Shown here one piece after another: positions 9,123-61,269 of a DNA stretch of 64,000 bases (the stretch's first letter is position 1; every line of letters begins with the position of its first letter). The notes under the pieces were generated by a model. That model did not search any database. It saw nothing but the letters and a program-made list of their open reading frames with translations, and was not told the origin of the DNA. Source of the DNA: an uncultured Candidatus Saccharibacteria bacterium (GTDB lineage: Bacteria; Patescibacteriota; Minisyncoccia; Phycocordibacterales; XYD1-FULL-46-19); NCBI GenBank assembly GCA_964355855.1, contig CAYHFD010000001.1:9921-73920 (forward strand), read 5' to 3'. The position numbers and the translations under genes are program-made.

Positions 9123-9614
9123 CTATTTCAAATAACTATCAAACCAGACCGCGTGGCAGGTGTAGCCACCCGGGTTTTTCTGCAGATAATCTTGATGGTG
9201 GGCTTCCGCTGGGTAGAATTTAGTCAACGGCTCCAAAGTGGTCACCACCGGCCCCGACCAGCGACCAGACTTGTTGACGATATCAATAAATTTTTCGGCT
9301 TCACTTTTTTCTTCATCACTCCCATAAAATATCGCCGAGCGGTAGGAACTGCCTTTATCATTTCCCTGTTGATTTAAAGTGGTTGGATTATGCACCCGAA
9401 AAAAGAAGTCGAGTAAGTTTTTATACGAAGTCTGGGTCAGGTCATATTCTATCTCCACTGCTTCAGCGTGGCCGGTGTGGTTTTGATAGGTCGGATTGGC
9501 CACACTACCTCCGGTATAACCTACTTCAGTATTAATAACCCCTGGTTCTTTTCGAATCAGTTCCTCTAGGCCCCAAAAGCAACCACCCGCCAAAACTATT
9601 TTTTTATTATTCAT
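9123..9614 (-). CDS. msrA: peptide methionine sulfoxide reductase A
   Basis: IVLAGGCFWGLEE catalytic motif. Confidence 0.9.
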   Translation of the reverse strand: MNNKKIVLAGGCFWGLEELIRKEPGVINTEVGYTGGSVANPTYQNHTGHAEAVEIEYDLTQTSYKNLLDFFFRVHNPTTLNQQGNDKGSSYRSAIFYGSDEEKSEAEKFIDIVNKSGRWSGPVVTTLEPLTKFYPAEAHHQDYLQKNPGGYTCHAVWFDSYLK

Positions 9615-12974: not shown

Positions 12975-13012
12975 ACATCCAAGGGTAGCCCTCCGCAAGG
13001 AGGGCTATTTTG
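12975..13012 (+). terminator. plus-strand intrinsic terminator with no annotated upstream plus-strand gene
   Basis: GGGTAGCCCTCC-GCAA-GGAGGGCTA followed by TTTTGTTTTT. Confidence 0.45.
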
Positions 13013-13015
13013 TTT

Positions 13016-13588
13016 TTACGACTTATCCTCTTTATGTTTAAGATCTCTACCCCACACATCTTCCTTCATGTTTAATACATCGAAGTATCCATCACCTCCT
13101 GTTTTTAACTCATGCGACACATTGTTTTTAGAAGAAAAAATAAAAACCTTTTTACCACCATTACGCAAATAATTGACTAAGGCCAGAAAATCAGAATCAC
13201 CGGTAAAAAGAATTACTGTATCATATTTTTTACAAAAATGAATAGCGTCTATAGTCATTTCCACGTCCATATTGCCTTTTTCTTGTATTGAATCACCTAG
13301 ATCACTATGTTGAATTATTCTTTTAAGCTCCTTTTTACGTACTGTAAATCCCAACCCTTTCTTAAGATAGGTAAAAAACTTATGCTTTCCATCTTGACTT
13401 TGTTCCCGAGTTCCTTCTTTTGGATAGGCCGTGTAATAAAATATCTGAAGTTCTGAAGCATTAAATTTTAATTTTAAAAAATACTTTAATTTTTCATAGT
13501 CAAACATCCTACCTTTTGCCTTTTGGGCTTCCCATAGGTTAGAGGCATCAATAAATGCAAATACAATTTTTTCAACTTCTTTAGACAT
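13016..13588 (-). CDS. NYN-domain (LabA/DUF88-like) protein
   Basis: IVFAFIDASNLW ... VILFTGDSDFLALVNYLRNGGKKVFIFS, characteristic of NYN ribonuclease-like fold. Confidence 0.65.
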   Translation of the reverse strand: MSKEVEKIVFAFIDASNLWEAQKAKGRMFDYEKLKYFLKLKFNASELQIFYYTAYPKEGTREQSQDGKHKFFTYLKKGLGFTVRKKELKRIIQHSDLGDSIQEKGNMDVEMTIDAIHFCKKYDTVILFTGDSDFLALVNYLRNGGKKVFIFSSKNNVSHELKTGGDGYFDVLNMKEDVWGRDLKHKEDKS

Positions 13589-13633
13589 AATATATATTTT
13601 ACATTAATCCTCCCTTTTCTGTTTGGGTAATCC

Positions 13634-13681
13634 CCAAGGACCGTCCTTGGAAAAATTTTGATGTGGTGTAATTTTGCTTGG
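13634..13681. repeat. left inverted repeat (IR-A) of ~5 kb island
   Basis: CCAAGGACCGTCCTTGGAAAAATTTTGATGTGGTGTAATTTTGCTTGG matches reverse complement of 18631-18678 with about 5 mismatches. Confidence 0.8.
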
Positions 13682-13835
13682 CGGGCTACTCGAGTTAAAT
13701 ACCCCTAAGGCAAGGTGCCACAAGGGTATTCTAGCACTAATCAGCCCTCCTTTTCGAGACCTCAGAGTCGGGACTATAATATTGTAAATCCGATACTTAA
13801 AAAGATTCCTCTTGATACGCCACCCCTTATTGCGA

Positions 13836-14618
13836 TTAATTCGTTAATTCATTCCAATACTCAATTAATTCCTGTTCGTTAGTTCTGGATCGATCTTTGG
13901 TTTGGGGCAAGACATCACCTTTATTCCACAGCTGATAACCGACAGAAAATACGAGATTAACAAGTCGAACATAAGCATTAAACCTATCCTTTAAATTGTC
14001 CGCCTTAGTATACCAGGCGAAAGCACCATAGAAATCAACGTCATTTTCCTTCAGATATTTGATAGCTGTTTTCTCCCCTCTCCATAAAATATCTCTGAAG
14101 ACAAAATAGCCAGTGAATACTTCCGAAACACTATAGAGTAGCCGCACTTCAAGCGCGTCGTGATATATTGGATCGCCCGACTCAAAGTAGCGATCATTGG
14201 CGACAAAGTTATAATTGATTTTTTGCCAAAGCAAATCCTTTTCTGATTGCGGTATGACAATCTTTTTATTTAGCTCCGTAATTTTTTCTTTCAACCTACT
14301 TAACTTACCCGATTTATCAAACTGGATTACCGACTTTGTCAGCCAGTTCACAAATATCGCGTCCATGGCATGGCCAGGAAATTCCTTGCTCGTCTCTATT
14401 CGCTTGAGGTCGTCATGATCGAAAAAATAAATATCGGCAAATTTATCATCAATCCAAGTATAAAGAGACACCAATTCATGTTTGTGCTTATTGAGAATTA
14501 TAACGAGGTCTATGTCACTATATGATTTGTTTTTTTCATCCTGAGATCCTGTGAGGAATACTACATCCACATTTTCATGCGATTTAAGCTTTTTAATTAT
14601 ATGGGCTAAGGTTGTCAT
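13836..14618 (-). CDS. Pol-beta superfamily nucleotidyltransferase with C-terminal helical domain (KNTase/LinB-like architecture)
   Basis: LTGSQDEKNKSYSDIDLVII = GS...DxD nucleotidyltransferase motif; ~260 aa. Confidence 0.55.
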   Translation of the reverse strand: MTTLAHIIKKLKSHENVDVVFLTGSQDEKNKSYSDIDLVIILNKHKHELVSLYTWIDDKFADIYFFDHDDLKRIETSKEFPGHAMDAIFVNWLTKSVIQFDKSGKLSRLKEKITELNKKIVIPQSEKDLLWQKINYNFVANDRYFESGDPIYHDALEVRLLYSVSEVFTGYFVFRDILWRGEKTAIKYLKENDVDFYGAFAWYTKADNLKDRFNAYVRLVNLVFSVGYQLWNKGDVLPQTKDRSRTNEQELIEYWNELTN

Positions 14619-14718
14619 AAATTTAGGTAATTACTTATGTATTACTTTAGCAAAATCCAAGATAGATAAAAGAGTTTCCTTTATGCTTATTTTCATAATT
14701 TTATCACTTTTTTTCTTA

Positions 14719-14874
14719 TCAAAAATAGTCTTTTAGTTCCACGGCATCGTCTTCATCAAGACCTTCTTCATCCATAATTTCTTTAACCTGCTCGGCTTCT
14801 TCCATATCTAAGCCGTGATTTTGAGCGATTTCGGCAATGGCTTTAATTTCATCTGGGTCTTTATCTTCAAGCAT
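14719..14874 (-). CDS. small acidic protein (51 aa), hypothetical
   Basis: Hand-translated: MLEDKDPDEIKAIAEIAQNHGLDMEEAEQVKEIMDEEGLDEDDAVELKDYF; below ORF-track size cut-off. Confidence 0.25.
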   Translation of the reverse strand: MLEDKDPDEIKAIAEIAQNHGLDMEEAEQVKEIMDEEGLDEDDAVELKDYF

Positions 14875-14951
14875 GGTTATATTGTATATAGAACCAATAG
14901 TAAATCAAATTTGTAATAAATAGATCGGACCTATAATAATTCTTAAATGGC

Positions 14952-15927
14952 GGCTGACCTGCTCCGTAGAAAACACCTAACCCCAGACAATGGTTACATT
15001 GTGGACGAACAATCGAAGCATCATCTCACGACACTGCGACCAATATGACCGGGCTCGCAAGAACAAACCAAGATTGCTTTAATCATTGAGTTCACTGTTT
15101 CCCCTTGCCACCGCTGGCCGTAAAGAACCTTGTTGAAATGAGTGGCCATAATTTTCCGCCACTTGCCACTTGGAAGTTTGTCAGTTCGTCTGCCAATCCT
15201 CGGTGGGATAATTGTCCGAATGTTTTTCTCGCGAGCAAAGACATGTGAATGTTCGCTGTCATAACCAGCATCAGCCGTTAGGATCTTTAGGTGAACATTT
15301 TTTTCGGCTTCTTTCACTGCTTTTTCAAAATGAACAATATCAGGATATGGACCACGGGATGGCACTCCCGCTAGGACGAGATGGGTATGGCAATCAGAGA
15401 CAATACCAACCTTTGGATAGCGAGTATATGTTGTCAATTGGTACTTTTCTTCTCCTTTAGCTCTTCTTTTCACAAAATAAGTACTAATATGGTGCGATTC
15501 GAAGCCGGTGCCATCAATAGCCGAGAGTTGGATATTTTTTTGCATAATTTTTCTCTGAACCGCAAGAGCGAGAATTTCTTTAATGAGTTTGTCTAAGGTA
15601 TCTTTTTTGGTTAGCCGATAGGCGGCTTTTTGGAGGGTGGTGAAGTGTGGAATTTCGTTTAATTCGAGTATTTTCCTTAGATCGCTGGAGTCCTGCAATA
15701 TTTCTTCGATTCCGCGATAATCAGTAGTAAAAAATTCTTTCAGCACTAAGCAGGCGACTAGTTGATGTTGAGTAAACTTCTTGGGACTTTTGAGATGCCG
15801 AAATGGTGGTAATGCTCGCTTGGCGGTGGCGTAGGCAACCACCGCAATAGCGTTAGGTGATTTTGATGTTTTTATTACCCAAAGTATATCATGGGCTGTC
15901 TATGTTTTCTACGGAGCAGGGCTGACC
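14952..15927 (-). mobile_element. IS4/IS5-like insertion sequence with 17-bp terminal IRs and 8-bp target-site duplication
   Basis: CTGCTCCGTAGAAAACA at 14960-14976 and its reverse complement at 15903-15919, each flanked by direct GGCTGACC (14952-14959; 15920-15927). Confidence 0.75.
15021..15842 (-). CDS. DDE transposase (IS4/IS5-like)
   Basis: IDGTGFESHH ... ILTADAGYDSEHSHVFAREKNIRTIIPP catalytic DDE context. Confidence 0.85.
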   Translation of the reverse strand: MVAYATAKRALPPFRHLKSPKKFTQHQLVACLVLKEFFTTDYRGIEEILQDSSDLRKILELNEIPHFTTLQKAAYRLTKKDTLDKLIKEILALAVQRKIMQKNIQLSAIDGTGFESHHISTYFVKRRAKGEEKYQLTTYTRYPKVGIVSDCHTHLVLAGVPSRGPYPDIVHFEKAVKEAEKNVHLKILTADAGYDSEHSHVFAREKNIRTIIPPRIGRRTDKLPSGKWRKIMATHFNKVLYGQRWQGETVNSMIKAILVCSCEPGHIGRSVVR

Positions 15928-15987
15928 CAATTTCTGAAATAGTGGCTGATTTCATTATCTACCACATTATCCATTTCTAGAAGCTGA

Positions 15988-16191
15988 TTACATCCCTGAC
16001 CACTCCTTTTCACACTGTGCGCAACGATTATTGCCAGTATGTTCAAAAATATCAGTAAACTTGTTTGGCTGATATATTTTTTCATCTTCATTCCAGAAAA
16101 ATTCGTCATCTATAATTGTTTCTACTAACTTGCGTTCACAACCACAAAATTGACAAGAATGTTTTGGAAAAATTATGATTTCTTCATCCAT
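15988..16191 (-). CDS. small zinc-ribbon protein (CxxC...CxxC)
   Basis: CQFCGCERK ... CAQCEKEW. Confidence 0.4.
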   Translation of the reverse strand: MDEEIIIFPKHSCQFCGCERKLVETIIDDEFFWNEDEKIYQPNKFTDIFEHTGNNRCAQCEKEWSGM

Positions 16192-16226
16192 ATTCTGATC
16201 ATTGATCGAATCTAGAAGTAAGTCAA

Positions 16227-16994
16227 CTACTTTAATCGGTAGACGCCATCACCAGCGAATTCAAGATAGCCCTTATCTCTCAAGAATTGTAATTGCTGTC
16301 TGATTTTCGGTTTTATATTTTTGTTTTCAGGATGAATGACGGACAAATCTTGCTCAAAGACATACATGTCTTGCAGGGTAAACTCTTTTTTGTTAAGAAA
16401 ATCTATACAATTCATGATATCCAAAATCCAACCTTTTACATCAGCTTTTTTAACTTGTTTGAGAAATACTGTTTTCTGCCATTTTTCCAATACATCTTTT
16501 TTATATAGTTCTTTCCCGTTCTCAATATAAAAAATTTGTCCTGCTTTTGGTATTTTAGAAAAAAGTATGTTTGAACCGACCCAACCAGCTCGTCTAGCAC
16601 TTTCTGCGAGTGGTTTTCTTTGTTCGATAATTTCGGATACAAAAAAGTGTTTTGGTACAACAAAAAAATTATTTACATCCCACATCTCAACCATATAGCC
16701 CATGAAAAAGAAATTTGGTTTTTGAGGTGAATTAATTCTCTTTATCATCTGAGAATAAGCACCCGCAGAAACCTTTTTGCCCATCTTACCTTTTTTGGAT
16801 TTCAGTTCAAAATCTTCCGCACATTTTTTACAATAAAAATCTGCAACAGGCTTGTTGTTGTCATAATTGTAAATATCATTGCCACAGCTTGGGCAATAAA
16901 TTTCATTAAGAACCCAAGCCTCACTCAACACTCTAGCTTTTTGAGAATAACTTGTGTAATTGTTAGCTAATTTTGTGTCAAAATTTAAGTTCAT
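16227..16994 (-). CDS. DpnI-like (Dam-replacing family) methyl-directed type IIM restriction endonuclease
   Basis: Co-linear resemblance to R.DpnI as I recall it: SYSQKARVLSEAWVLNEIYCPSCGN, PVADFYCKKCAEDFELKSKKG, PNFFFMGY, KPLAESARRAGWVGSNI, C-terminal winged-helix IRQQLQFLRDKGYLEF. Confidence 0.75.
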   Translation of the reverse strand: MNLNFDTKLANNYTSYSQKARVLSEAWVLNEIYCPSCGNDIYNYDNNKPVADFYCKKCAEDFELKSKKGKMGKKVSAGAYSQMIKRINSPQKPNFFFMGYMVEMWDVNNFFVVPKHFFVSEIIEQRKPLAESARRAGWVGSNILFSKIPKAGQIFYIENGKELYKKDVLEKWQKTVFLKQVKKADVKGWILDIMNCIDFLNKKEFTLQDMYVFEQDLSVIHPENKNIKPKIRQQLQFLRDKGYLEFAGDGVYRLK

Positions 16995-16997
16995 AAA

Positions 16998-17840
16998 TTA
17001 TGCCCCCAGTTTGTCTGGTTTCTTCAAGCTCTTTTTTTCATCAGATTTTAACTTCCTCTCAATTTTTTTTATGTCTTCTTCCGCCGGTAATTTTTCAGGA
17101 GTAATTCCTCGACTCAAAAGTGTTCTTCGGACACTTCTATTGTTTGTAATATGTTCTTCGGAAATAGATTGTTCACTTCTCAAGTTTTTACTTTTTGAAT
17201 TAAAAATAGTGATCTCTGTTGCAAAATCCTTCGCTTTTAGAATTATTGTTGGTTGAAAATCAGCAAGCGCACGACCACTAGGAACACCGAGCCGATTTTT
17301 CATTTCTTGAGTTGTATACCCAAATAATGCTTTATCTCCCTTACTTCGTATGAGTGCAAAATTTTTATCACTCCCCGTTTGTTGAAAAATAACACCTGAC
17401 AACTCTTTTTCTGTCTCTGTCAATTTTTGCCGAGCGTTTAGTCTTTCAAATTCTTGTATTCGTTTCTCAATAATTTCAAATTTTCTTGTTTGCACCGCAA
17501 AGTAATTTTGAGCAAATGCAATTTCTTCTTTTCTTGGATCGCCATTTTGAGCAATTAGGTAGCAGGCATACCGAGTAAGCATGATATCTGGAACCTCCTT
17601 TTGCGCACCTTTTGGCATTTGGATCGTTTTCCCGACGTCGGCAAAATGATCATTTACACTGTGACCCGTTACCTCACAAGCAGTTTTTGCCTTTGAGATA
17701 ACAGAGATGAAATTATCCCATTTTGTATAACCCAATAACTGTTGTAAATCACGGGCAAGCCAAAATTCAACACCTTCGCTAGATCTATTGGCATAAGATT
17801 CAAAATTACTTATAAGCGATTTAATAATTTCTATTTTCAT
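16998..17840 (-). CDS. DinD-like (DNA-damage-inducible protein D family, Bro-N-like) protein
   Basis: GVEFWLARDLQQLLGY..W.NF, TRYACYLIAQNGDPRK, FAQNYFAVQTR closely parallel E. coli DinD blocks. Confidence 0.7.
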   Translation of the reverse strand: MKIEIIKSLISNFESYANRSSEGVEFWLARDLQQLLGYTKWDNFISVISKAKTACEVTGHSVNDHFADVGKTIQMPKGAQKEVPDIMLTRYACYLIAQNGDPRKEEIAFAQNYFAVQTRKFEIIEKRIQEFERLNARQKLTETEKELSGVIFQQTGSDKNFALIRSKGDKALFGYTTQEMKNRLGVPSGRALADFQPTIILKAKDFATEITIFNSKSKNLRSEQSISEEHITNNRSVRRTLLSRGITPEKLPAEEDIKKIERKLKSDEKKSLKKPDKLGA

Positions 17841-17879
17841 AAGTCTATTTTAACAATTCATAACTCAAAACACCAAGCG

Positions 17880-18113
17880 CTTTGGCAATATTGGTAATGG
17901 TCGAAAGTGTAGGTGATACATAGGTCGGACCCATGGAAATGGTGACCCTCACAGCCTGGGAAACCCCCACCCGCCATCGCAAGCTCAGGCGTTGCGGGGC
18001 AGGCACGGTTTTCCGACGAGCTTCGCTCTGCCTTCCTCCACGGGAAAACAGGTGTTTTCCCGACCCCTTTCCCCTGTAGGGTCACAGTTTTTTCACTGTG
18101 TTTTAAAAAACTG
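17880..18113 (-). ncRNA. GC-rich structured element G (homolog of 27480-27702), immediately 3' of tRNA-Glu
   Basis: GC-rich in AT-rich genome; shared blocks CCTGGGAAACCC, GGTTTTCC, CTCCACGGGA.A.CAGGTGTT.TCC with element R; 20-bp perfect inverted repeat 18074-18124 includes the tRNA 3' end. Confidence 0.4.
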
Positions 18114-24995: not shown

Positions 24996-25026
24996 GAAAA
25001 AGGCCTCCATCACTGGAGGCTTTTTG
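24996..25026. terminator. intrinsic terminator immediately 3' of tRNA-Phe (minus strand)
   Basis: GGCCTCCA-TCAC-TGGAGGCC hairpin flanked by A5/T5 runs on both strands. Confidence 0.65.
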
Positions 25027-25391
25027 TGCTTGGGGGCGGGTTCGAACCGCCGACCCTTCGCTCTTCCAGAGCGTTTGGACTATATCATCATCCGTTCTGC
25101 TAATAAGCAGAGTTAGGAGGCAGGCGCTTCCCCTCAACTACGCTCGGGGTAAACCCTAAGCTAATCAAGAGTACTCCCTTTCGGGATAGTCTCTACACCT
25201 TCCGAGCACCACTTTTGAATTCTAGAATATTCTAAAAACCAAAAGTGGTGCTCGGCTTGGCTCGGGATTGTCCAAAAAATTAATCTTGGGTGTCCCCCGA
25301 ATTCACCTACTTTTTCGATCCACTTTACAATAGAAAGGCCCGAAGTTTTTTAGGGTCCAGGCGAATGCTCTACCAACTGAGCTACCCAAGC
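25027..25391 (-). tRNA. tRNA-Phe (inferred anticodon GAA) interrupted by a ~282-nt group-I-like intron in the anticodon loop
   Basis: 5' exon 25359-25391: GCTTGGGTAGCTCAGTTGGTAGAGCATTCGCCT; 3' exon 25027-25076: GAAGAGCGAAGGGTCGGCGGTTCGAACCCGCCCCCAAGCA; halves form perfect acceptor (GCTTGGG/CCCAAGC), anticodon (TTCGC/GCGAA) and T stems. Confidence 0.75.
25077..25358 (-). ncRNA. group I intron (self-splicing ribozyme candidate) within tRNA-Phe
   Basis: 5' exon ends in U, intron ends in G; contains GAGACTATCCCGAAAGGGAGTACTC (P7/GAAA-tetraloop-like) and GATGATATAGTCC (P7') reminiscent of the Tetrahymena/cyanobacterial cores. Confidence 0.65.
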
Positions 25392-25460
25392 AATTTTTAT
25401 CTAACCCTTATTTTATAGCATGTCTGAGGCCAGAAATAAAGCCCAGGATCGAGTGAAATT

Positions 25461-35813: not shown

Positions 35814-35820
35814 CGATATA

Positions 35821-36270
35821 ATTGCCTTTTGTTTATAAGCCGAATTCTGTACCGAGCACCACTTCTGACACCCACATTCTTATTAGAAAACACTAAGTAA
35901 GTGTAAATTGATTTGCTAGTGAAAGTTAGACAGTCAGTAGCAGAAGTGGTGCTCGGCGATAGCCATTTATCTGGGATGACTGTCGCCAGCCACCTCAAGC
36001 GGCACAAACCAGTGCAAAGCACTGGAGTACGACCTTGCATTCGGGTAGGTATTTTGCCGTTTCAATCTTCAGGTTTCCCTGAAGCTTCACCCCAAAGGGT
36101 GCCTTTGCCTCTCGGCTAGGGCGTCACTGCTCTCAACCCTCGGATTGCTCCGGACAGGCGTTACCTGCTACCTTGTTCCACCATCTAAAGATAGTGGGAA
36201 TGTTCGGACTTTCCTCTATCAGCCCGCCCAATCGGGCAAACTGACAGTAGCTATCCAACAAAAGGCAACC
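35821..36270 (-). ncRNA. rnpB: RNase P RNA (bacterial type A-like)
   Basis: Minus-strand: GAGGAAAGUCCGAAC (P4 5' strand), GGUAACGCCUG, GGGUGAAGC, ACAGAAUUCGGCUUAUA (P4 3' strand); P1 GGUUGCCUUUUGUU pairs with AACAAAAGGCAAUU. Confidence 0.8.
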
Positions 36271-44494: not shown

Positions 44495-44960
44495 CAAACC
44501 CGTAATCCACCATTTGGCCTTGCTAAATTTAGTCCTTGGTGGTATTTTGGTAGCTGTTTTGATCTTGCCTTGTTCAAGGGGAGCGAGGCAAACTCATTGG
44601 AGACAGTTGTTTTATGCCAAAAGCCAATTTGTTGTTGTCGATGGTCGTTGTTGTCTTCCGGCGGACCAACTCTGGAACAATCCAGGACGAGGTGCGTCAT
44701 GACCTTCGAGTTCCAAACGGTGTTGATCTCCCGCCAAAGGGTGGTGAATTCAATGTCAGAGGGGGCCTACCCGGTATATTCGGTGGGGTTTGCATCGTCA
44801 AACCCGGCACAAATGGAACCTGTCAGGTCAAGCGGGTCTCGACGCACAGAGACCCCGCCTTGGCTACCCTACGGGTAAAACTCGCCCCCCGCTAAACGAC
44901 CACTCCAACCCATACCGACCGCCAACATCAAACCAGGTGCTGGCGGTTGTCTTTTTATTA
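44495..44960 (+). ncRNA. candidate structured ncRNA of unassigned class ending in intrinsic terminator
   Basis: ~460 nt with only short overlapping ORFs in several frames, GC above background, multiple hairpins (GGGTCTC-N8-GAGACCC); ends ACCGCCA-N16-TGGCGGT-TGTCTTTTTATT. Confidence 0.3.
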
Positions 44961-51424: not shown

Positions 51425-51814
51425 ATGGAACTATTATTTCTCTTGGGCCGTGTCTTGTTTGGTGGCTACTTTATCTTAATGGGTATTAACCATTTTAAAA
51501 ATCCAGCGGGGCTCATAGCCTACGCCAATTCTAAAAAACTGCCTTATCCTAAAGCATCGGTTTATATTTCCGGACTAATGCTTTTCCTTGGCGGACTAGG
51601 GGTGGTGACTGGTGCTTTTTATGTCACCGCCTTGTGGTTGTTAGTAATATTCCTCCTAGTGTCAGCCTTTTCAATGCACAATTATTGGAAGGCTTCGACC
51701 ACCGAGGCAAAGACTGCCGATAAAGCTAGTTTTCAACGCAATTTAGCTTTAGCTGGCGCATCTTTAATGCTAGCCACCATGCAAGCCGAGTGGATATACT
51801 CGGTGATGTTTTAG
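51425..51814 (+). CDS. DoxX family membrane protein
   Basis: LGRVLFGGYFILMGINHF DoxX N-terminal motif, four TM. Confidence 0.75.
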   Translation: MELLFLLGRVLFGGYFILMGINHFKNPAGLIAYANSKKLPYPKASVYISGLMLFLGGLGVVTGAFYVTALWLLVIFLLVSAFSMHNYWKASTTEAKTADKASFQRNLALAGASLMLATMQAEWIYSVMF

Positions 51815-51914
51815 CTAAGCAAATAACGACCTATTTGACAAATTATATTATATAGTGTATTATATACACCAGATTAGTTGCCGGATTGCCCGGTAACACA
51901 AAGGAGAGACACTC

Positions 51915-52196
51915 ATGCCAGCAGCGGCCCCCTCGACGACCCCGATTAGAACTTTCGACCAGGCCTCCGCCCTTCGGTCCGGAGATCGCCTCCGGTCAAA
52001 AGAAGGAGAAGTTTGGACCGTGGCCAAGGTTGACCGAAATCGGTCATACCCCGATGTTCCCCCACCAGCGTTCGTATTCACGAACGGCCAGCGGGAAATC
52101 CTCGCGGGGTGGTGGCCATTCAGACCACAAGGCTTCGTGGACGAGAGCTTCCAGCTCGTCCCGCAACTCATCGGGGCCACCGTGGTCCAGGACTAG
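51915..52196 (+). CDS. hypothetical protein (high-GC, foreign-looking)
   Basis: AAAGGAGAG SD 7 nt before ATG; Pro/Arg-rich 93 aa; followed by strong terminator. Confidence 0.45.
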   Translation: MPAAAPSTTPIRTFDQASALRSGDRLRSKEGEVWTVAKVDRNRSYPDVPPPAFVFTNGQREILAGWWPFRPQGFVDESFQLVPQLIGATVVQD

Positions 52197-52219
52197 CTCC
52201 TCCTTTCTCGTGTCCCATC

Positions 52220-52256
52220 AGCCGGAACCCCTCAGGGTTCCGGCTGTCTTTTTTTA
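52220..52256 (+). terminator. intrinsic terminator
   Basis: AGCCGGAACCC-CTCA-GGGTTCCGGCT then GTCTTTTTTT. Confidence 0.8.
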
Positions 52257-52262
52257 ATTTTT

Positions 52263-52835
52263 TTATAATTCGATTTCTTTGTTCACCTCACGGTCTAGCA
52301 TATAAATATAGTCCCTGGTTTCTTCCGGGGTGAAAACTTGCAGACCAAGCGCTCTGGCCTCTTCACTTATTTTTTCATACATCTCTTCCGCTTGGTCGGC
52401 CACGTCCGCTTCTTGCTCGGCTTCATAGTAATAGTGCTCGCCCGGCGTCCGCACCAAAGACCACTCAATATCGTGATAGCGATAAATATCTTTCAAGCGG
52501 TGCATCCACACCCCCGTGGTACAGCCCAAGGCCTTCATCACTTCTTTACCCTTAGTTAAATCAGCTACCGCCAGCGGCAATGATATTTCCTGCCGGCTGT
52601 TATTGTTGGCCGAAACTTTATGCTTGACCATAATCTCACATTTGTCATTGGTCTTCCGCAAGCGAATATCAGTTGCCCGTTTTAAGGGGTCGACATCATA
52701 GCCAGGGTAACCATCGGTCAACAAAATCATCTCTCGCTCATGACTTTCGACGTGTTCACCCTTATCAGCCATAAACTTCTTTAGCCGATCAAATTCCTCT
52801 TTCGTCAATTCTCCTCTTATTTCAACTTCAATCAT
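52263..52835 (-). CDS. CYTH (triphosphate tunnel metalloenzyme / CyaB-like) domain protein
   Basis: N-terminal MIEVEIRGEL (ExExK) and downstream acidic/basic tunnel residues. Confidence 0.65.
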   Translation of the reverse strand: MIEVEIRGELTKEEFDRLKKFMADKGEHVESHEREMILLTDGYPGYDVDPLKRATDIRLRKTNDKCEIMVKHKVSANNNSRQEISLPLAVADLTKGKEVMKALGCTTGVWMHRLKDIYRYHDIEWSLVRTPGEHYYYEAEQEADVADQAEEMYEKISEEARALGLQVFTPEETRDYIYMLDREVNKEIEL

Positions 52836-53004
52836 ATGATTTGGGGGGGTTATTGGCTATGGGAACAGAATAACAAATATAAAGTTAAAGAAAAAGTTTT
52901 TTAAAAACTTTTGTCAAGTTTCCCCTGCCAACCAAATTATGGTAGAACTAAGGACAGAACTGAACCGTAACAACCAAGCAACAACTCCAGAAAGGGGTGA
53001 CTTT

Positions 53005-54465
53005 ATGCCAAACACAAACGGCATATGGACCGAAATCCTTGGTCAACTCCCCGCGTTAGGAGTTGACGAACATACGATGACTTTTTGGGCCTCCCAGTGT
53101 CAATTTGGTGGAATAATAAATCAGCAAGTTACGATCCTTGCATCCTCACAGTTTGTTGGTGACTGGGTTCGTGACAACGGTCTGGCCGACAAAATTGTTG
53201 AAGCAGCTAACATGGCAGAGTCCTGCCATACGGAAATCCGTTCCTTCAAGATTGTAGTGGATAACCAAATCAAGTTGTCCGAAGAACTATTGTCTGAAGT
53301 GGATATCGACTCGGAAATTCCCTTTGGGTGCCAAGCTACAATCCAGGCTACCACGGTAGCACCAGCACCACTTCGGGCGTCAGCTCACCAACGTTCGACC
53401 AAGAATCGAGGCTGGGGCAACTACCGCGAAGGCAACTTGGTCGTTGGTAAAGCCAACAACTTTGCCACAGCCGCCATCATTGAGCTGGTAAAACCCAACC
53501 GGAGTTTCAAGGGGTTACTCCTTATCGCTCCACAAGGTCGTGGCAAAAGTCTCCACCTGGAAGCTGCCTGTTTTGCCTTCAGTGCTAAACATAACAGCGC
53601 CCAAAAAATTGTCTTCGTTAGCGGAGATGAATTTTTGGCCCACTATTGTGGAACTGCCAACGGCAATGGCGGGGGCAAGAAATTCGACGACCAATACACG
53701 GGAGTCGACCTGCTCGCTCTAGACGGTCTCGAGAGAATGGCGGGCAACACTCGCAAAGGAACCCAAGATGCGCTCGCGCGAGTGCTGGACCGGCTCGAAA
53801 GAAGGAGGGCGCCGGTGCTAATCGCCTCAACAATGCCCCTAGACGAGCTGGCCTTGACCCCGGACTTGAGTTCACGTCTTCAGTCCCTAGTTCCAGTCTC
53901 GCTCAATTTACCCGACACTGATATGCGCCGGGAAATCACCGGGCGAAAATTGGCAATCTGGGGGTTGGCGCCACATCTGCAACCGAGTGGTGACTCGCTC
54001 TCGTTTTTAGCTGGCTTGCCAGTGACAGATATGCGCGAGTTGGTTGGCCACCTAGACAACATCTTGCTTCACAGCAAGTGTTTCCAGCGCCAACTGACGC
54101 TGGACGAGATAAGGGAGTTGGTTTTGGGTCCAACCAAAACTAAACCACCAGTCACTTGCGAGTTGGTCTGTGCTACCATCGCCGAGCACTATCCCGATTT
54201 GAAACGGTTAGGGGGGCTCGCGGTGCTAGCAGGCAAACGTCGAGACCAAGACGTAGCGTTCTATCGCCATCTGGCGATGTATCTGTGTCTGAAATTGGTC
54301 CCCGACGTAACCGGACCCGATGTTGCCAAATTGTTCAACCGCGACCGGACTTCGGTTAGTCATGGTGTGGACAAAATCAACGAGTTGCTGAAAAGCGACG
54401 AGGGTGAGGACCTGCGCTTTCGTGTTGCAAGGATTTGCGACACGCTTGGTTGTACAATCAAATAG
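53005..54465 (+). CDS. divergent DnaA-like protein (AAA+ core + C-terminal DnaA-type HTH), high-GC paralog
   Basis: IWTEILGQLP..MTFW (domain I-like), NNFATAAIIEL...LLIAPQGRGKS (Walker A variant), VDLLALDGLE (Walker B), LSSRLQSL sensor block, AFYRHLAMYLCLKL...RDRTSVSHGVDKI (domain IV HTH); GGTGA SD before ATG at 53005. Confidence 0.6.
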   Translation: MPNTNGIWTEILGQLPALGVDEHTMTFWASQCQFGGIINQQVTILASSQFVGDWVRDNGLADKIVEAANMAESCHTEIRSFKIVVDNQIKLSEELLSEVDIDSEIPFGCQATIQATTVAPAPLRASAHQRSTKNRGWGNYREGNLVVGKANNFATAAIIELVKPNRSFKGLLLIAPQGRGKSLHLEAACFAFSAKHNSAQKIVFVSGDEFLAHYCGTANGNGGGKKFDDQYTGVDLLALDGLERMAGNTRKGTQDALARVLDRLERRRAPVLIASTMPLDELALTPDLSSRLQSLVPVSLNLPDTDMRREITGRKLAIWGLAPHLQPSGDSLSFLAGLPVTDMRELVGHLDNILLHSKCFQRQLTLDEIRELVLGPTKTKPPVTCELVCATIAEHYPDLKRLGGLAVLAGKRRDQDVAFYRHLAMYLCLKLVPDVTGPDVAKLFNRDRTSVSHGVDKINELLKSDEGEDLRFRVARICDTLGCTIK

Positions 54466-54520
54466 CCCGAGCTAGTGGAGTGATCCACGAGCCCGGGCTA
54501 TATTATTTTTATCTATTTTT
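54463..54520 (+). terminator. intrinsic terminator
   Basis: TAGCCCGAGC...GAGCCCGGGCTA hairpin then TATTATTTTTATCTATTTTTTT. Confidence 0.7.
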
Positions 54521-54548: not shown

Positions 54549-55334
54549 CTAACCTTGGTCATCGTCATCATCGTCATCATCGTCATCATCGTCATCATCG
54601 TCATCATCGTCATCATCGTTTAAATTGTCGCCTTCGTCATCGCTTTCGCCATCTTGATCTTCTTGTTCATCATCCCTATCCTCATTGTCTAAGTTATCCT
54701 CGTCATTAATTAAATCCTGACTAGTTTTCTTGTCCTTTATTTTTATTTTAACTTCTTCTTTGCCATTGTTAAATTTAATTTCAATTTCAATACGAGAGGA
54801 CAATAAATCCGTCGGCACTCGTCCAGTCACCCCCGCCACTTCTAGTATCTCATTTATCCGCGCCAAAGTTTGAGGACCAACTACTCCCACCTGTTCTATT
54901 CTTACTTTATTTTGAAAACGTTTAACAGCTTGTTCGGTTAGTGGCCCAAAAAAACCAGTAATTACTCCTTCTGGGTATAAAGCTGGATCAGTCGCTAAAA
55001 TAGTTTGCAATTCTTTGACATCATCTCCCGACATACCAATTTTTAAACTTCTTTTTAACTTAAGCTGGGCTAATTCCGCATTTAAGGATTGATTAACCGT
55101 CTCAGAAACAACTAATTGTGCTTGTAATTTTTTAATTTGAGCCAATAATGATGCGATTTTTTCCTCAAAAGAGCCCAATGCACTGTTTGCAGTAGAGGAC
55201 GTGGTTGAGGTTGTACTTGAAACAACCGATTCATTAGTACTAGTTGCCGTGCTGGTTGCCGTCTGAGCAAGCCCCTCACTTAAGGTAAAAAAGAAACCAA
55301 AAAGCACCAAGACTACATATCCGATTTTTCTCAT
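54549..55334 (-). CDS. secreted peptidoglycan-binding-domain protein with C-terminal poly-Asp tail
   Basis: Signal peptide, Ser/Thr-rich linker, coiled coil, PG_binding_1-like MSGDDVKELQTILATDPALYPEGVITGFFGPLTEQAVKRFQ, then ~25 consecutive Asp. Confidence 0.7.
   Translation of the reverse strand: MRKIGYVVLVLFGFFFTLSEGLAQTATSTATSTNESVVSSTTSTTSSTANSALGSFEEKIASLLAQIKKLQAQLVVSETVNQSLNAELAQLKLKRSLKIGMSGDDVKELQTILATDPALYPEGVITGFFGPLTEQAVKRFQNKVRIEQVGVVGPQTLARINEILEVAGVTGRVPTDLLSSRIEIEIKFNNGKEEVKIKIKDKKTSQDLINDEDNLDNEDRDDEQEDQDGESDDEGDNLNDDDDDDDDDDDDDDDDDDDDQG
54558..54618. repeat. (GTCATCATC)n microsatellite encoding the poly-Asp tail
   Basis: Seven near-perfect 9-bp units; direct read. Confidence 0.9.
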
Positions 55335-55458: not shown

Positions 55459-57240
55459 TTACTGTCTCTTATGTTTGGCGCGTTCAGCTTCGGTTAAATA
55501 CTGTTTACGCAAGCGCACACTTTTCGGTGTAATTTCCAAATACTCGTCGTCGGACATTATTTCCAGTCCCCGCTCAATAGTAATTGGTAGTGGGGGAATT
55601 AAATAAAGTTTTTCATCAGTACCCGAAGCACGCATATTGGTTAGCTGTTTACCCTTAGTTGGGTTCACCGCCATTTCTTCACCCTTGGACGTATTGCCCA
55701 CCACCATGCCCTCATACACCTCGGTCGCCGCTTCAATATACAAAGTTCCGCGCGTCTGCAAATTTGCCAGCGAAAAACCTAAAGCTTTGCCAGGAGCCAT
55801 CGAGGTCATAGAACCCACGGCCCGCTTTTCTATTTCCCCAGCATAAGGTTTAAAACCCAATACCCGACTGGCAAATATGCCTTCACCTTTAGTGTCAATA
55901 ATAAACTGCCCCCGATAACCCAACAAACCACGAGTCGGCCCCTCAAGCGTAAGACGCACAATTTTATCATCAGTCTTCATATTGGTCATATGGACCGCCC
56001 GTTTGCCCAGCTTCTCAATCACTGCCCCCTGGGCTTCAGTTGGAATTTCGATCGTCACCTCTTCATATGGTTCTGATTTTACCCCCTCGATATCTTTAAT
56101 AATCACTTGCGGTTGGGACACCGACAGCTCAAACCCTTCACGACGCATATTCTCGAGCAGGATCGCGATATGCAATTCCCCGCGGCCGTAGACTTTCATT
56201 GTATCCCCTTCAAAGTCGACCCTTAGTCCGACATTGACTTCGAGCTCTTTCAACAACCGCTCGCGGATCTGCCGACTAGTCACAAATTTCCCTTCGCGGC
56301 CACCAAAAGGGGAGTCGTTGACCAAAAAATTTAGGGCAATCGTCGGTTCGTCGACATGAATAAAAGGCAATATCTCCGCCTCGGGATTATCACAAATAGT
56401 GTCACCAATATAAATTTCCGAGAGCCCAGCCACCATTACAATATCGCCGGCGACAGCCTCTTTCACCTCTTGGCGGCTAATCCCCGCAAAAGTGAAAAGT
56501 TTGGTAATCTTGCCCTCTTCCACTTGGCCATTCGATTTTTTTATATAAATTTTAGTTCCGTCTTTGATGACGCCTTCGTAAACCCGCGCAATCGCCAGCC
56601 GACCCAAAAAGTTGTCGTAAGCCAAGTTAAAAGGCTGGGCCCGCAGGGGCGCCGTGTTATTACTGGCGGCTGGTGGCACATGTTCGAGAATCGTATCAAG
56701 TAGAGGCTCAAGGTTTTTCCGTTCATCATCCAGTTTTTTCATCGCTACCCCATCTTTACCAATCGCGTACACCGTAACAAAGTCTAATTGTTCGTCAGTG
56801 GCCCCTAGTTCCATAAAAAGTTCCAAAATTTCATCATGAGCCCGGGCCGCATCAGCTGCTGGCTTGTCGATTTTGTTTAGCACCACGATCGGCTTGTGAC
56901 CAATTTCAAGCGATTTTTTCAACACAAAACGAGTTTGGGGCATGGGTCCTTCTTGGGCATCTACCACCAAAAGCACCGAGTCGATCGAACGCAAAACGCG
57001 CTCAACCTCGGAACCAAAGTCGGCGTGGCCGGGAGTATCAACAATATTTATCTTGGTCCCTTTGTAATTGATCGAGGTATTTTTGGCGTAAATAGTAATA
57101 CCCCGCTCGCGCTCCAGATCATTAGAATCCATCGTGGTCCCTTCACCAGTCATCCCCGTCTCACGCATAATAGCGTCGGTGAGCGTAGTCTTACCGTGGT
57201 CAACGTGGGCAATAATGGCGATATTACGTATCTCAGTCAT
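55459..57240 (-). CDS. typA: translational GTPase TypA/BipA
   Basis: [32 protein letters not shown]; BipA-specific C-terminal domain. Confidence 0.95.
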
Positions 57241-60093: not shown

Positions 60094-60933
60094 CTAAAGA
60101 ACAGAAACCGGTAGATGCAAGATAGCGGCCCCAGTTTCCAAATACCAACCCAAGTTGGTCGTCGTGTGACTAGAGACCAGATACCCATGGCGCGCCACAT
60201 ATTCACCCATGACTAGATACTGGGCTGAAGTCCGCGCCGAGCGTTCCATCAGTTCACTAAAAGAAGCCTGGGGACAAATTCGCTCATACATCCGTAAGCG
60301 CGCTACGGTCTCGCCGACTATCCGGCTGAAATATTGCCCGTCGCTCATCAGCTTAGCCGTAAGCTGCTCTTCGGTCTCGACTAAATTCGGTATCTCGTCA
60401 GTCATCAAGCGCACTTGCCAGCCCCGACTCGCTACTTTAGCCCTGGTCGCCGCCACTGAAGCTTCAACACAAGCCAGCAGTTCCTCCCGACTACGACCGA
60501 CGGCTCGGCTAAGCACTGGGTCATCGGCCTCCTGGTTAGGCATCAGGATTCGCACTTCCGCTTGGGGTAAAACCCTGGTCAGCCGCTCTAGGAATCTAAT
60601 CTGACGTTCGCCCAAGAGTGACACCCCGGTCCCCACCGAGCGAAAGTCATAGGCCCCGTCCCGGTGGCTATAATCCAGGCAAGATGGGGCAATAATCACC
60701 GGCTGTTCATTGGTTCTGGCAATCACCAGCCCAATGCGATCACCCATCACTTTGGTTCGGGAAGCATAGCCGCACACACCGATTGTTCGGCACACCCGCC
60801 GCACTTTTTCCATTCTCAACCGCTTGTGTTGCTCTCCCCATAAGCCTGCCTCACCATTGAGGTACTTCCTCGTCCGTGGCAAGCGCAGGCGGGGTACTGC
60901 CATTTCTTCCATCATTTCCACCACTGTTTGCAT
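60094..60933 (-). CDS. hypothetical protein (high-GC, foreign-looking)
   Basis: AGGAG 8 nt before ATG at 60933 (longer ORF to 61098 probably non-coding); no recognised motif. Confidence 0.35.
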   Translation of the reverse strand: MQTVVEMMEEMAVPRLRLPRTRKYLNGEAGLWGEQHKRLRMEKVRRVCRTIGVCGYASRTKVMGDRIGLVIARTNEQPVIIAPSCLDYSHRDGAYDFRSVGTGVSLLGERQIRFLERLTRVLPQAEVRILMPNQEADDPVLSRAVGRSREELLACVEASVAATRAKVASRGWQVRLMTDEIPNLVETEEQLTAKLMSDGQYFSRIVGETVARLRMYERICPQASFSELMERSARTSAQYLVMGEYVARHGYLVSSHTTTNLGWYLETGAAILHLPVSVL

Positions 60934-61269
60934 TTCACATCTCCTGGTTGGTAAAGATCCACTCAACAAAAAACTCCTCGTCGCCAGGCAGGAAAAAACC
61001 TGCCCAGGGACGAGGAGTCTTGAAAAAAACCCAAGCTCGTGGTGCCACCCTAGTTTTGGAACCAAAAAAACACCGTGGAGGTGCTCTTTTAGTTCCACTC
61101 ATCGGCGCGTACATCCCAGAGGGACAGATACCGATTATCCCATGGTTACGGAGGAGTGCCGAGCTGTCACTTGCGCAACAGCCATCCTGCCCAAACGGGC
61201 GATCGCGGCCCAACCCTCGGCTTACAGCCGAGGACCACGATCAAGGATTTTGTCTCTTGTTGAAGTACT

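Follow-up and report, generated by a model that had tools for sequence, protein, structure and literature searches.

The subject of this analysis is a gene for a divergent DnaA-family protein of 486 amino acids (aa; 53005..54465, plus strand; called dnaA-like below) and the genes that surround it. It lies in a 64-kb stretch of DNA, referred to in its full length as the window, that is part of a 76.9-kb contig (Hain_H52_01um_R1_98, ENA ERZ1292616) from an uncultured groundwater bacterium of the Patescibacteria. A preliminary description, made from the letters of the window, had picked out three open reading frames (ORFs) here, which encode the 486-aa protein, a CYTH-family protein and a protein of 93 aa (orf93 below), and all three are present as described. 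The neighborhood consists of ordinary chromosomal genes, including ftsA/ftsZ, hisS, groES/EL, lepA, typA and the genes for RNase J, an AddA/UvrD-like helicase and RluB, and gyrA lies just beyond the window edge on the same contig. The DoxX–orf93–CYTH–dnaA-like junctions recur with 99.8–100% identity in at least four independent assemblies (other filters, replicates and sequencing runs), and the locus is therefore not an assembly chimera.

Comparison with two related loci is informative: L010, the syntenic locus that encodes the relative P0005 on a 56-kb contig of GCA_964539475.1, also from an uncultured groundwater bacterium, and L009, a locus on a 1.7-kb contig that encodes P0004, the third member of the family. 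The features of the window locus are as follows.

51425..51814 (+): DoxX gene; Pfam DoxX 42 bits; 75% aa identity to the syntenic L010 gene; conserved left flank
51835..51863 (+): promoter-like site of orf93, TTGACA-17-TATTAT, 11/12; core conserved at the nucleotide level in L010
51915..52196 (+): orf93, the 93-aa ORF; GC-rich; small protein predicted to form an SH3/Tudor-like beta-barrel; conserved partner of the dnaA-like gene
52219..52246 (no strand): bidirectional intrinsic terminator hairpin between orf93 and the CYTH gene; 12-bp stem, -24.8 kcal/mol, z=-7.9; unique in the window
52263..52835 (-): CYTH/triphosphate-tunnel-metalloenzyme family protein, 190 aa; Pfam CYTH 31 bits; neighbor outside the conserved module
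52911..52940 (+): promoter-like site of the dnaA-like gene, TTGTCA-18-AATTAT; TTGTCAAGTTT..TATGGTA block; conserved in L010 and L009
53005..54465 (+): DnaA-family protein, 486 aa; domain I 1–90; disordered linker 91–136; AAA+ domain III ~140–372; helix-turn-helix (HTH) domain IV ~373–486
54462..54501 (+): intrinsic terminator of the dnaA-like gene; -27 kcal/mol, z=-6.0, then a T-run
54549..55334 (-): PG_binding_1 protein with a poly-Asp tail; Pfam 45.5 bits; not at the L010 and L009 loci; variable neighbor
55459..57240 (-): typA/bipA; Pfam domains; 91% aa identity in L010; conserved right flank, convergent with the dnaA-like gene

Strong terminators had been reported at the ends of the flanking DoxX and PG-binding genes, but both terminators lie inside the region, at 52219–52246 and 54462–54501. 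Searches for RNA elements at the locus gave only chance matches, which fall on these terminator hairpins.

The DnaA-family protein

We place the start of the 486-aa protein at 53005, because this codon is preceded by a GAAAGGGG ribosome-binding site, because the ATG of a longer, 508-aa ORF falls inside the promoter-like TTGTCA-18-AATTAT site (52911–52940), and because the N-termini of P0004 and P0005 start at the equivalent methionine. Profile searches find the Bac_DnaA (48 bits) and Bac_DnaA_C (45 bits) families in the protein, with DnaA_N just under its cutoff (23 bits), and they find CYTH in the neighboring gene. The DnaA model TIGR00362 aligns from end to end (residues 8–466 to positions 1–424 of 437), with a score of 158.6 bits that is below the equivalog cutoff of 343.9; for comparison, P0004, P0005, P0006 and P0008 score 174, 264, 371 and 562 bits, respectively. 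A second model, NF001154, gives 84.7 against 410. In a sequence search against the PDB only DnaAs match, and an AlphaFold2 model built from a 64-sequence alignment (mean pLDDT, the predicted confidence score, 86.5) has a folded domain I, disorder at 91–136, an AAA+ domain and a helical domain IV. The top Foldseek matches of this model are DnaAs of B. subtilis, Aquifex and Thermotoga (8BTG, 1L8Q, 2HCB, 2Z4R), followed by Hda, and the NCBI name of the protein is "DnaA/Hda family protein". The full DnaA domain order claimed in the preliminary description is thus borne out by the end-to-end alignment, the Pfam matches and the structural comparison in agreement, and the protein is a real, complete four-domain and extremely divergent member of the DnaA family.

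Hda/HdaA (TIGR03420) shares the DnaA-type AAA+ domain with it. However, Hda is an AAA+ domain only, of about 230 aa and without domains I and IV, both of which the 486-aa protein has, and its TIGR03420 score is 43.7 against a cutoff of 194.8. The closest known system is DnaA itself (TIGR00362; 8BTG, 1L8Q/2HCB, 2Z4R, 1J1V), which has the same four-domain order and fold. The two share the P-loop Lys, the Walker B Asp, the box VII arginine finger, the sensor II Arg, and in the HTH the R-x-x-A-M-Y-L helix and the D-x-T-x-V-x-H signature. They differ in that the 486-aa protein has GKS-LHL where DnaA has GKTHL and DG for DD in Walker B, and in that its gene adjoins neither dnaN nor the replication origin (oriC).

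The residues kept and lost were audited in an alignment of 64 sequences, made up of 62 canonical DnaAs, P0005 and the query. All 14 of the invariant columns are kept in the query; these include Walker A G178/G180/K181, Walker B D240, the arginine finger R291, sensor II R344, the separate residue G348, and in the HTH of domain IV R421/A424/L427. In contrast, 93 columns show at least 85% conservation in the 62 canonical DnaAs, and the query retains only 42 of them. The motifs quoted in the preliminary description (GRGKS, LDGLE, AMYLCLKL and SVSHGVDKI) are all present, although its reading of the first two as a non-canonical Walker A and Walker B holds in part: Walker A is A-x4-G-K-S with K181/S182 present and so fits the classical [AG]x4GK[ST], whereas Walker B is DG, the second acid D241 having become Gly. 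The His-Leu after GKT and the EEFFHTFN helix are lost, the sensor I Asp (D276) is Thr, and the equivalent of E. coli R281 is Asp. In domain IV the signature reads R-D-R-T-S-V-S-H and departs from the canonical DHTTV..H that reads the TTATCCACA box. H448, the equivalent of the base-contacting His434 and 100% conserved in the canonical set, is Arg, and T450 (the T436 equivalent) is Ser.

These residues suggest how the protein might work. ATP binding is plausible and would use the intact P-loop lysine and Walker B Asp, and the retained arginine finger and sensor II may support head-to-tail assembly. ATP hydrolysis, which is uncertain, would probably be poor, given Gly in place of the second Walker B acid and Thr in place of the sensor I Asp. 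Domain IV is predicted to bind double-stranded DNA with an altered sequence preference, probably for something other than TTATCCACA, because the base-contacting His-Thr is Arg-Thr/Ser. Taken together, ATP binding, assembly, poor hydrolysis and a changed DNA preference would make the protein an ATP-dependent DNA-binding switch, acting as a regulator or as an alternative initiator, with the orf93 barrel protein, its sole conserved companion, as a candidate partner.

Relatives and neighbors of the dnaA-like gene

An exhaustive phmmer search against 1.84 billion representatives found only two real relatives of the protein, P0004 (40% identity, E=3e-90) and P0005 (29%, E=6.5e-35); the next matches are thousands of ordinary DnaAs at 26–31% identity and 85–115 bits. 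Word-indexed searches returned the protein itself, P0005 and otherwise weak generic DnaA matches, and among the GTDB species-representative genomes, which include neither this metagenome-assembled genome (MAG) nor GCA_964539475.1, nothing is closer than 27%. P0005 is likewise an orphan, with best other DnaA matches that are 34–36% identical, and it is more canonical than the window protein (GSGKTHLL, Walker B DE, RDHTTV, 264 bits). P0155, which is among the best matches to P0005, was considered as the canonical dnaA of the same organism and rejected, as it comes from an ordinary dnaA–dnaN origin region of an unrelated organism.

The gene order at L010 is MFS, AddA/UvrD, YqeY, DUF389, RluB, DoxX, a 93-aa ORF, a 99-aa ORF, dnaA-like, convergent typA, DUF1653, SNase, TfoX and HTH_20. 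Identities between the window and L010 are high in the right flank (TypA 91%, TfoX 86%, DUF1653 77%, SNase 73%, HTH_20 72%) and in most of the left flank (DoxX 75%, YqeY 74%, DUF389 73%, UvrD 71%, RluB ~70%, MFS 50%); the 93-aa ORFs are 48% and the DnaA-like proteins 28% identical. Non-coding signals are homologous as well: the orf93 promoter core TTGACAAAT...ATAGTGTATTATAT and the dnaA-like promoter block TTTTGTCAAGTTT...TATG[G/T]TA are shared, and the orf93 terminator hairpin GCCGGAACCC...GGGTTCCGGC is nearly identical in L010. At L009 the P0004 gene has a promoter of the same type (TTGTCAA-17-TATGCTA), and directly after its terminator comes the 3′ end of a convergent typA, whose product ends in ...LRKQFLTEAARAKTKRS* and was compared with the TypA end of the window. 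Neither orf93 nor any dnaA gene at all is present within 8 kb of typA at 80 loci of more distant relatives (67–80% TypA identity). From the synteny, the homologous non-coding signals and the position of P0004 beside typA it follows that the locus descends from the common ancestor of a small clade. It is chromosomal and has been inherited by descent within this small clade of Patescibacteria, in the arrangement DoxX > orf93 > [variable gene] > dnaA-like >< typA.

Neither the CYTH gene nor the PG-binding gene has a counterpart at the L010 locus. In the slot of the CYTH gene, L010 carries on the opposite strand a GC-rich ORF of 99 aa (9154–9453, plus strand; orf99) that matches no family, so that this slot, which lies between orf93 and the dnaA-like gene, is variable. 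The CYTH and PG-binding genes are unrelated, variable neighbors of the dnaA-like locus.

Only the small ORF orf93 accompanies the dnaA-like gene in both the window and L010; it has a strong promoter and a terminator of its own. The strong Shine-Dalgarno sequence reported for it is there (AAAGGAGAG, upstream of the ORF). Its length and ribosome-binding site are conserved in L010, where the protein is 48% identical and the nucleotide differences fall mostly in third codon positions; orf93 is a real gene. It has no Pfam match, and its predicted fold is a generic barrel (SH3/Tudor-like). It has no similarity to orf99 of L010, so the two are not paralogs, and a comparison of the translations by eye showed no obvious resemblance to the other 93-aa ORF of the window, at 44614–44895. 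The leader of orf93 (51864–51914, plus strand; ~45 nt) can form a hairpin, GUUGCCGG...CCGGUAAC (-14.5 kcal/mol, z=-2.7), and at the same position L010 (8690–8736) has a different sequence that is also capable of forming a hairpin; this may be a regulatory leader or chance.

The CYTH protein matches Pfam CYTH (PF01928) with 31.0 bits against a gathering threshold of 23.2, over 167 of its 190 residues. TIGR00318 (cyaB) gives 39.4 bits, below its cutoff of 57.95, and there are weak PDB matches to 1YEM and 7NS8 (Saci_0718). The motifs that can be read from the translation are E3-x-E5-x-R7, R57-L-R59-K60 and E-A-E; the gene had been called a CYTH (ExExK) gene, and while the domain is confirmed the motif is E-V-E-I-R, that is, ExExR. 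Like the triphosphate tunnel metalloenzymes of P. furiosus (1YEM) and S. acidocaldarius (Saci_0718, 7NS8), the protein has an acidic ExEx(K/R) strand, a basic R-L-R-K strand and a later E-A-E, and it is plausibly a triphosphate-tunnel enzyme. It differs from CYTH/CyaB proteins in its ExExR for ExExK and its sub-cutoff CyaB score, and it shows no conserved association with the dnaA-like gene.

The preliminary description had suggested that the DnaA-like AAA+ protein is a regulator or defense component paired with the CYTH enzyme. Such a two-gene system, for example a regulator or defense system controlled by a nucleotide signal, is extremely improbable. The two genes do adjoin, in divergent orientation with a common intergenic region of 169 bp. 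However, the CYTH gene is missing from the orthologous L010 locus, where the 99-aa ORF lies on the other strand, so that the two co-occur in one genome only; in addition, the CYTH gene is native in composition and has its own signals on the opposite strand. Nor does any of the three proteins match PADLOC-DB at E<=0.1, and on this ground a defense system was rejected. That no system of this composition is known, as the preliminary description also stated, stands.

It had also been proposed that the region is an integrated plasmid or phage remnant with its own DnaA-like replication initiator. The composition of the dnaA-like gene and orf93 is atypical (see below), the gene content of the locus varies, and in PHROGs there is a weak AAA+ similarity, the only one found there, to DnaC-like loaders, which reflects the shared AAA+ fold. 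Against this stand the lack of any phage, integrase or transposase gene within the region or beside it, and of recombinase, structural, partition or transfer genes in it; there are no flanking direct repeats or att-like repeats and no tRNA junction, the closest tRNA lying over 23 kb from the region. No relatives were found on IMG/VR contigs, and the phage and plasmid collections yielded only dnaA genes at 24–30% identity, of which the annotated ones are the chromosomal initiator. Finally, the relative at L010 has the same DoxX–typA site with homologous promoters and terminator between flanks that are ~72% identical, and any insertion must therefore be ancient and fixed. A plasmid or phage remnant is thus very unlikely, and we consider this reading largely refuted.

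Divergence, composition and role

DnaA is among the most conserved of bacterial proteins. Within a single alignment, canonical DnaAs of many phyla have a median identity of 36%, whereas the window protein shares 28% with P0005, and the median identity of the window protein to the canonical DnaAs is 23%; the positional orthologs of the family share 28–40%. The identity between window protein and P0005 is flat across the domains (I 32%, linker 15%, III 30%, IV 28%), whereas ordinary DnaAs are far more conserved in domains III and IV than in domain I. The window protein, P0004 and P0005 form an exclusive group among 101 DnaAs in a neighbor-joining tree, in which long-branch attraction is possible, and they have derived residues in common (e.g., K169, L172, L257, L261, D262, E310 and D342). 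The DnaA-like protein evolves several-fold faster than its neighbors, in a comparison that rests on one genome pair.

The preliminary description saw a high-GC island here, and this holds in part. By gene, orf93 (GC 0.617, z=3.2) is the sole clear outlier; the dnaA-like gene (0.523, z=1.6) is equaled by four other genes of the window (0.50–0.54), and the CYTH gene (0.457) is ordinary. The k-mer foreignness that had been suspected for 51.86–54.5 kb is real for the dnaA-like gene, since in tetranucleotide usage 53001–54500 is the second most deviant of 126 segments (z=4.0) and has the lowest correlation to the background (r=0.28). The locus thus consists of two atypical genes with a native one between them and is not a uniform island. 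The same oddity is found in the relatives: the three dnaA-like genes have a GC content of 0.523, 0.497 and 0.528 against backgrounds of 0.42–0.44, their tetranucleotide usage correlates less with their hosts (r 0.11–0.32) than with each other (r 0.40–0.59), and orf93 is GC-rich in both genomes (0.62 and 0.57). Since the composition is atypical in all three carriers, it does not point to a recent insertion, and recent transfer into this genome alone cannot explain the pattern, which calls for recurrent replacement out of a common pool or else for some force maintaining the GC content of the locus.

In most Patescibacteria classes dnaA is grouped with dnaN, rnpA, rpmH and type IV secretion system (T4SS) genes (PMC12102498). 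There is no dnaN, rpmH or rnpA on the 76.9-kb contig, including its parts outside the window, and neither of the two contig ends beyond the window holds a dnaA or dnaN. The cumulative GC skew falls monotonically through the dnaA-like gene in the window and in L010, and the gene lies away from any turning point. Fifteen TTATCCACA-like 9-mers (one mismatch allowed) were found against 16.7 expected, none of them exact, so that boxes occur in chance number and form no cluster. The intergenic spaces beside the gene (169 and 83 bp) hold the promoter and the terminator and contain no repeat arrays or clusters. A local oriC was rejected because boxes are at chance level and there are no repeat clusters and no skew inflection, and the preliminary description was right to see a divergent, atypical gene outside an origin-like setting.

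We tentatively regard the DnaA-like protein as a clade-specific, fast-evolving second copy of the DnaA family that is not the housekeeping oriC initiator, a reading to which we would give somewhat less than an even chance. A duplication would explain both the location away from an origin and the accelerated rate. There is a precedent in the second full-length DnaA copy of Chlamydiae, DnaA2, which is likewise complete, located away from the dnaA–dnaN origin and more divergent than the primary DnaA; in contrast, the 486-aa protein has no affinity to a particular paralog group, and its carriers are far more divergent.

Several points weigh against a second copy. No other dnaA was seen on the contigs that were searched; full-length DnaA paralogs are to our knowledge rare, and Patescibacteria genomes are small and have few paralogs. 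Domain I and every invariant catalytic residue are kept, as in a working initiator, and all three copies are intact ORFs. The neighbor-joining grouping may be inflated by long-branch attraction, and with only three family members among the 1.84 billion representatives the rate comparison comes down to one pair of genomes. Furthermore, dnaA need not adjoin oriC, and a GC-skew profile that spans 64 kb of a MAG contig is no more than suggestive.

It is less probable, although a serious alternative, that the protein is the organism's only DnaA, a true initiator that has moved away from dnaN and evolves unusually fast. Its speed would then come from co-evolution with changed DnaA boxes or from a relaxed dependence on DnaA of the kind known in some symbionts and polyploid cyanobacteria. 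DnaA is nearly universal, as a rule in a single copy, and the complete four-domain architecture, the end-to-end TIGR00362 alignment, the confident DnaA fold including domain I and the retention of all invariant AAA+ and HTH residues are what would be seen in a sole initiator; moreover, three lineages carry the gene intact at a fixed locus, with its promoter conserved, and the syntenic P0005 is more canonical. On the other hand, it is very unusual for an essential gene in single copy that positional orthologs are 28% identical while their neighbors are 70–91% identical; of the strongly conserved DnaA positions about half are lost, and the composition is atypical in all three hosts. Beside the gene there is also no skew turn, no DnaA-box cluster and no room for an oriC.

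Two further possibilities bring in orf93. We see a rather small chance that it forms with the dnaA-like gene a rapidly diversifying, clade-specific module, in which a DnaA-derived ATP switch would serve in genetic conflict or in an alternative replication or regulatory task. Exchange of alleles via the DoxX and typA flanks would explain the host-unlike, GC-rich composition despite a protein identity of 28–40%. Slighter still is the chance that the two genes are a conflict-driven diversifying cassette, with alleles replaced by recombination through the same flanks; the drivers would be, for example, an addiction- or defense-like function, or phage proteins aimed at the initiator. Both genes are extremely divergent between conserved flanks and alongside conserved regulatory signals, and the slot between them varies (CYTH in the window, orf99 in L010). 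In addition, the GC-rich, host-unlike composition persists in three carriers despite divergence at saturation level. Simple vertical drift hardly accounts for this, whereas import from a pool would fit it, as would GC-biased gene conversion at a recombination hot spot. Such a cassette is opposed by the lack of PADLOC, PHROG, viral, phage or plasmid relatives and of a toxin-like or nuclease partner, by the generic barrel fold that is all orf93 has, and by the number of known alleles, which is three.

Whichever applies, the positional orthologs of this DnaA-family protein differ more than the DnaAs of different phyla do, yet they keep the invariant residues and the four-domain fold. If the gene is the only dnaA, the initiator and its DNA recognition would have been remodeled at great speed in an ultra-small episymbiont lineage; as a second copy, the reading that we tentatively favor, it would be a rare full-length DnaA duplicate that has acquired another role in a streamlined genome. 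In both cases the notions of a DnaA+CYTH "system" and of a mobile island are corrected.

Other features of the contig

The poly-Asp tail of the PG_binding_1 protein is encoded by a 9-nt GAT/GAC repeat (54549–54640, minus strand). The independent assemblies stop in the GAT repeat of this gene, apart from two that show one insertion or deletion, of 9 or 18 nt, relative to the window.

The most deviant segment of the 64 kb in tetranucleotide usage is 16001–17500 (z=4.1), within an AT-rich patch at 13000–18000 that is likely foreign and encodes NYN, a Pol-beta nucleotidyltransferase, a DDE_Tnp_1 transposase, a DpnI-like restriction enzyme and a Bro-N protein. A group I intron (Rfam RF00028, 54.3 bits, 25058–25361) splits a tRNA gene at the anticodon region (25010–25395, minus strand). 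ARAGORN calls this tRNA only once the intron has been removed in silico, and its Ser-GGA isotype depends on the splice sites and is unreliable. A bacterial class A RNase P RNA at 35820–36266 (minus strand) scores 103.4 against an Rfam gathering threshold of 100; it is ~80 nt longer than the model and apparently divergent.

Outside the window, four T4SS_pilin genes lie to the left of its start, beside gyrA (locus L173, 1851–4482). To the right of its end (L174, 10928–13850) there are a DUF2779 protein and a Rep_O-like protein of 352 aa with faint matches to Phage_rep_O and DUF4325.

A hypothetical gene at 60094–61098 (minus strand) has a GC content of 0.541 and a tetranucleotide correlation of r=0.26 to the background, with no Pfam match and no counterpart in L010. 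Its resemblance in composition to the dnaA-like gene and orf93 suggests that the genome has a class of GC-rich variable genes.

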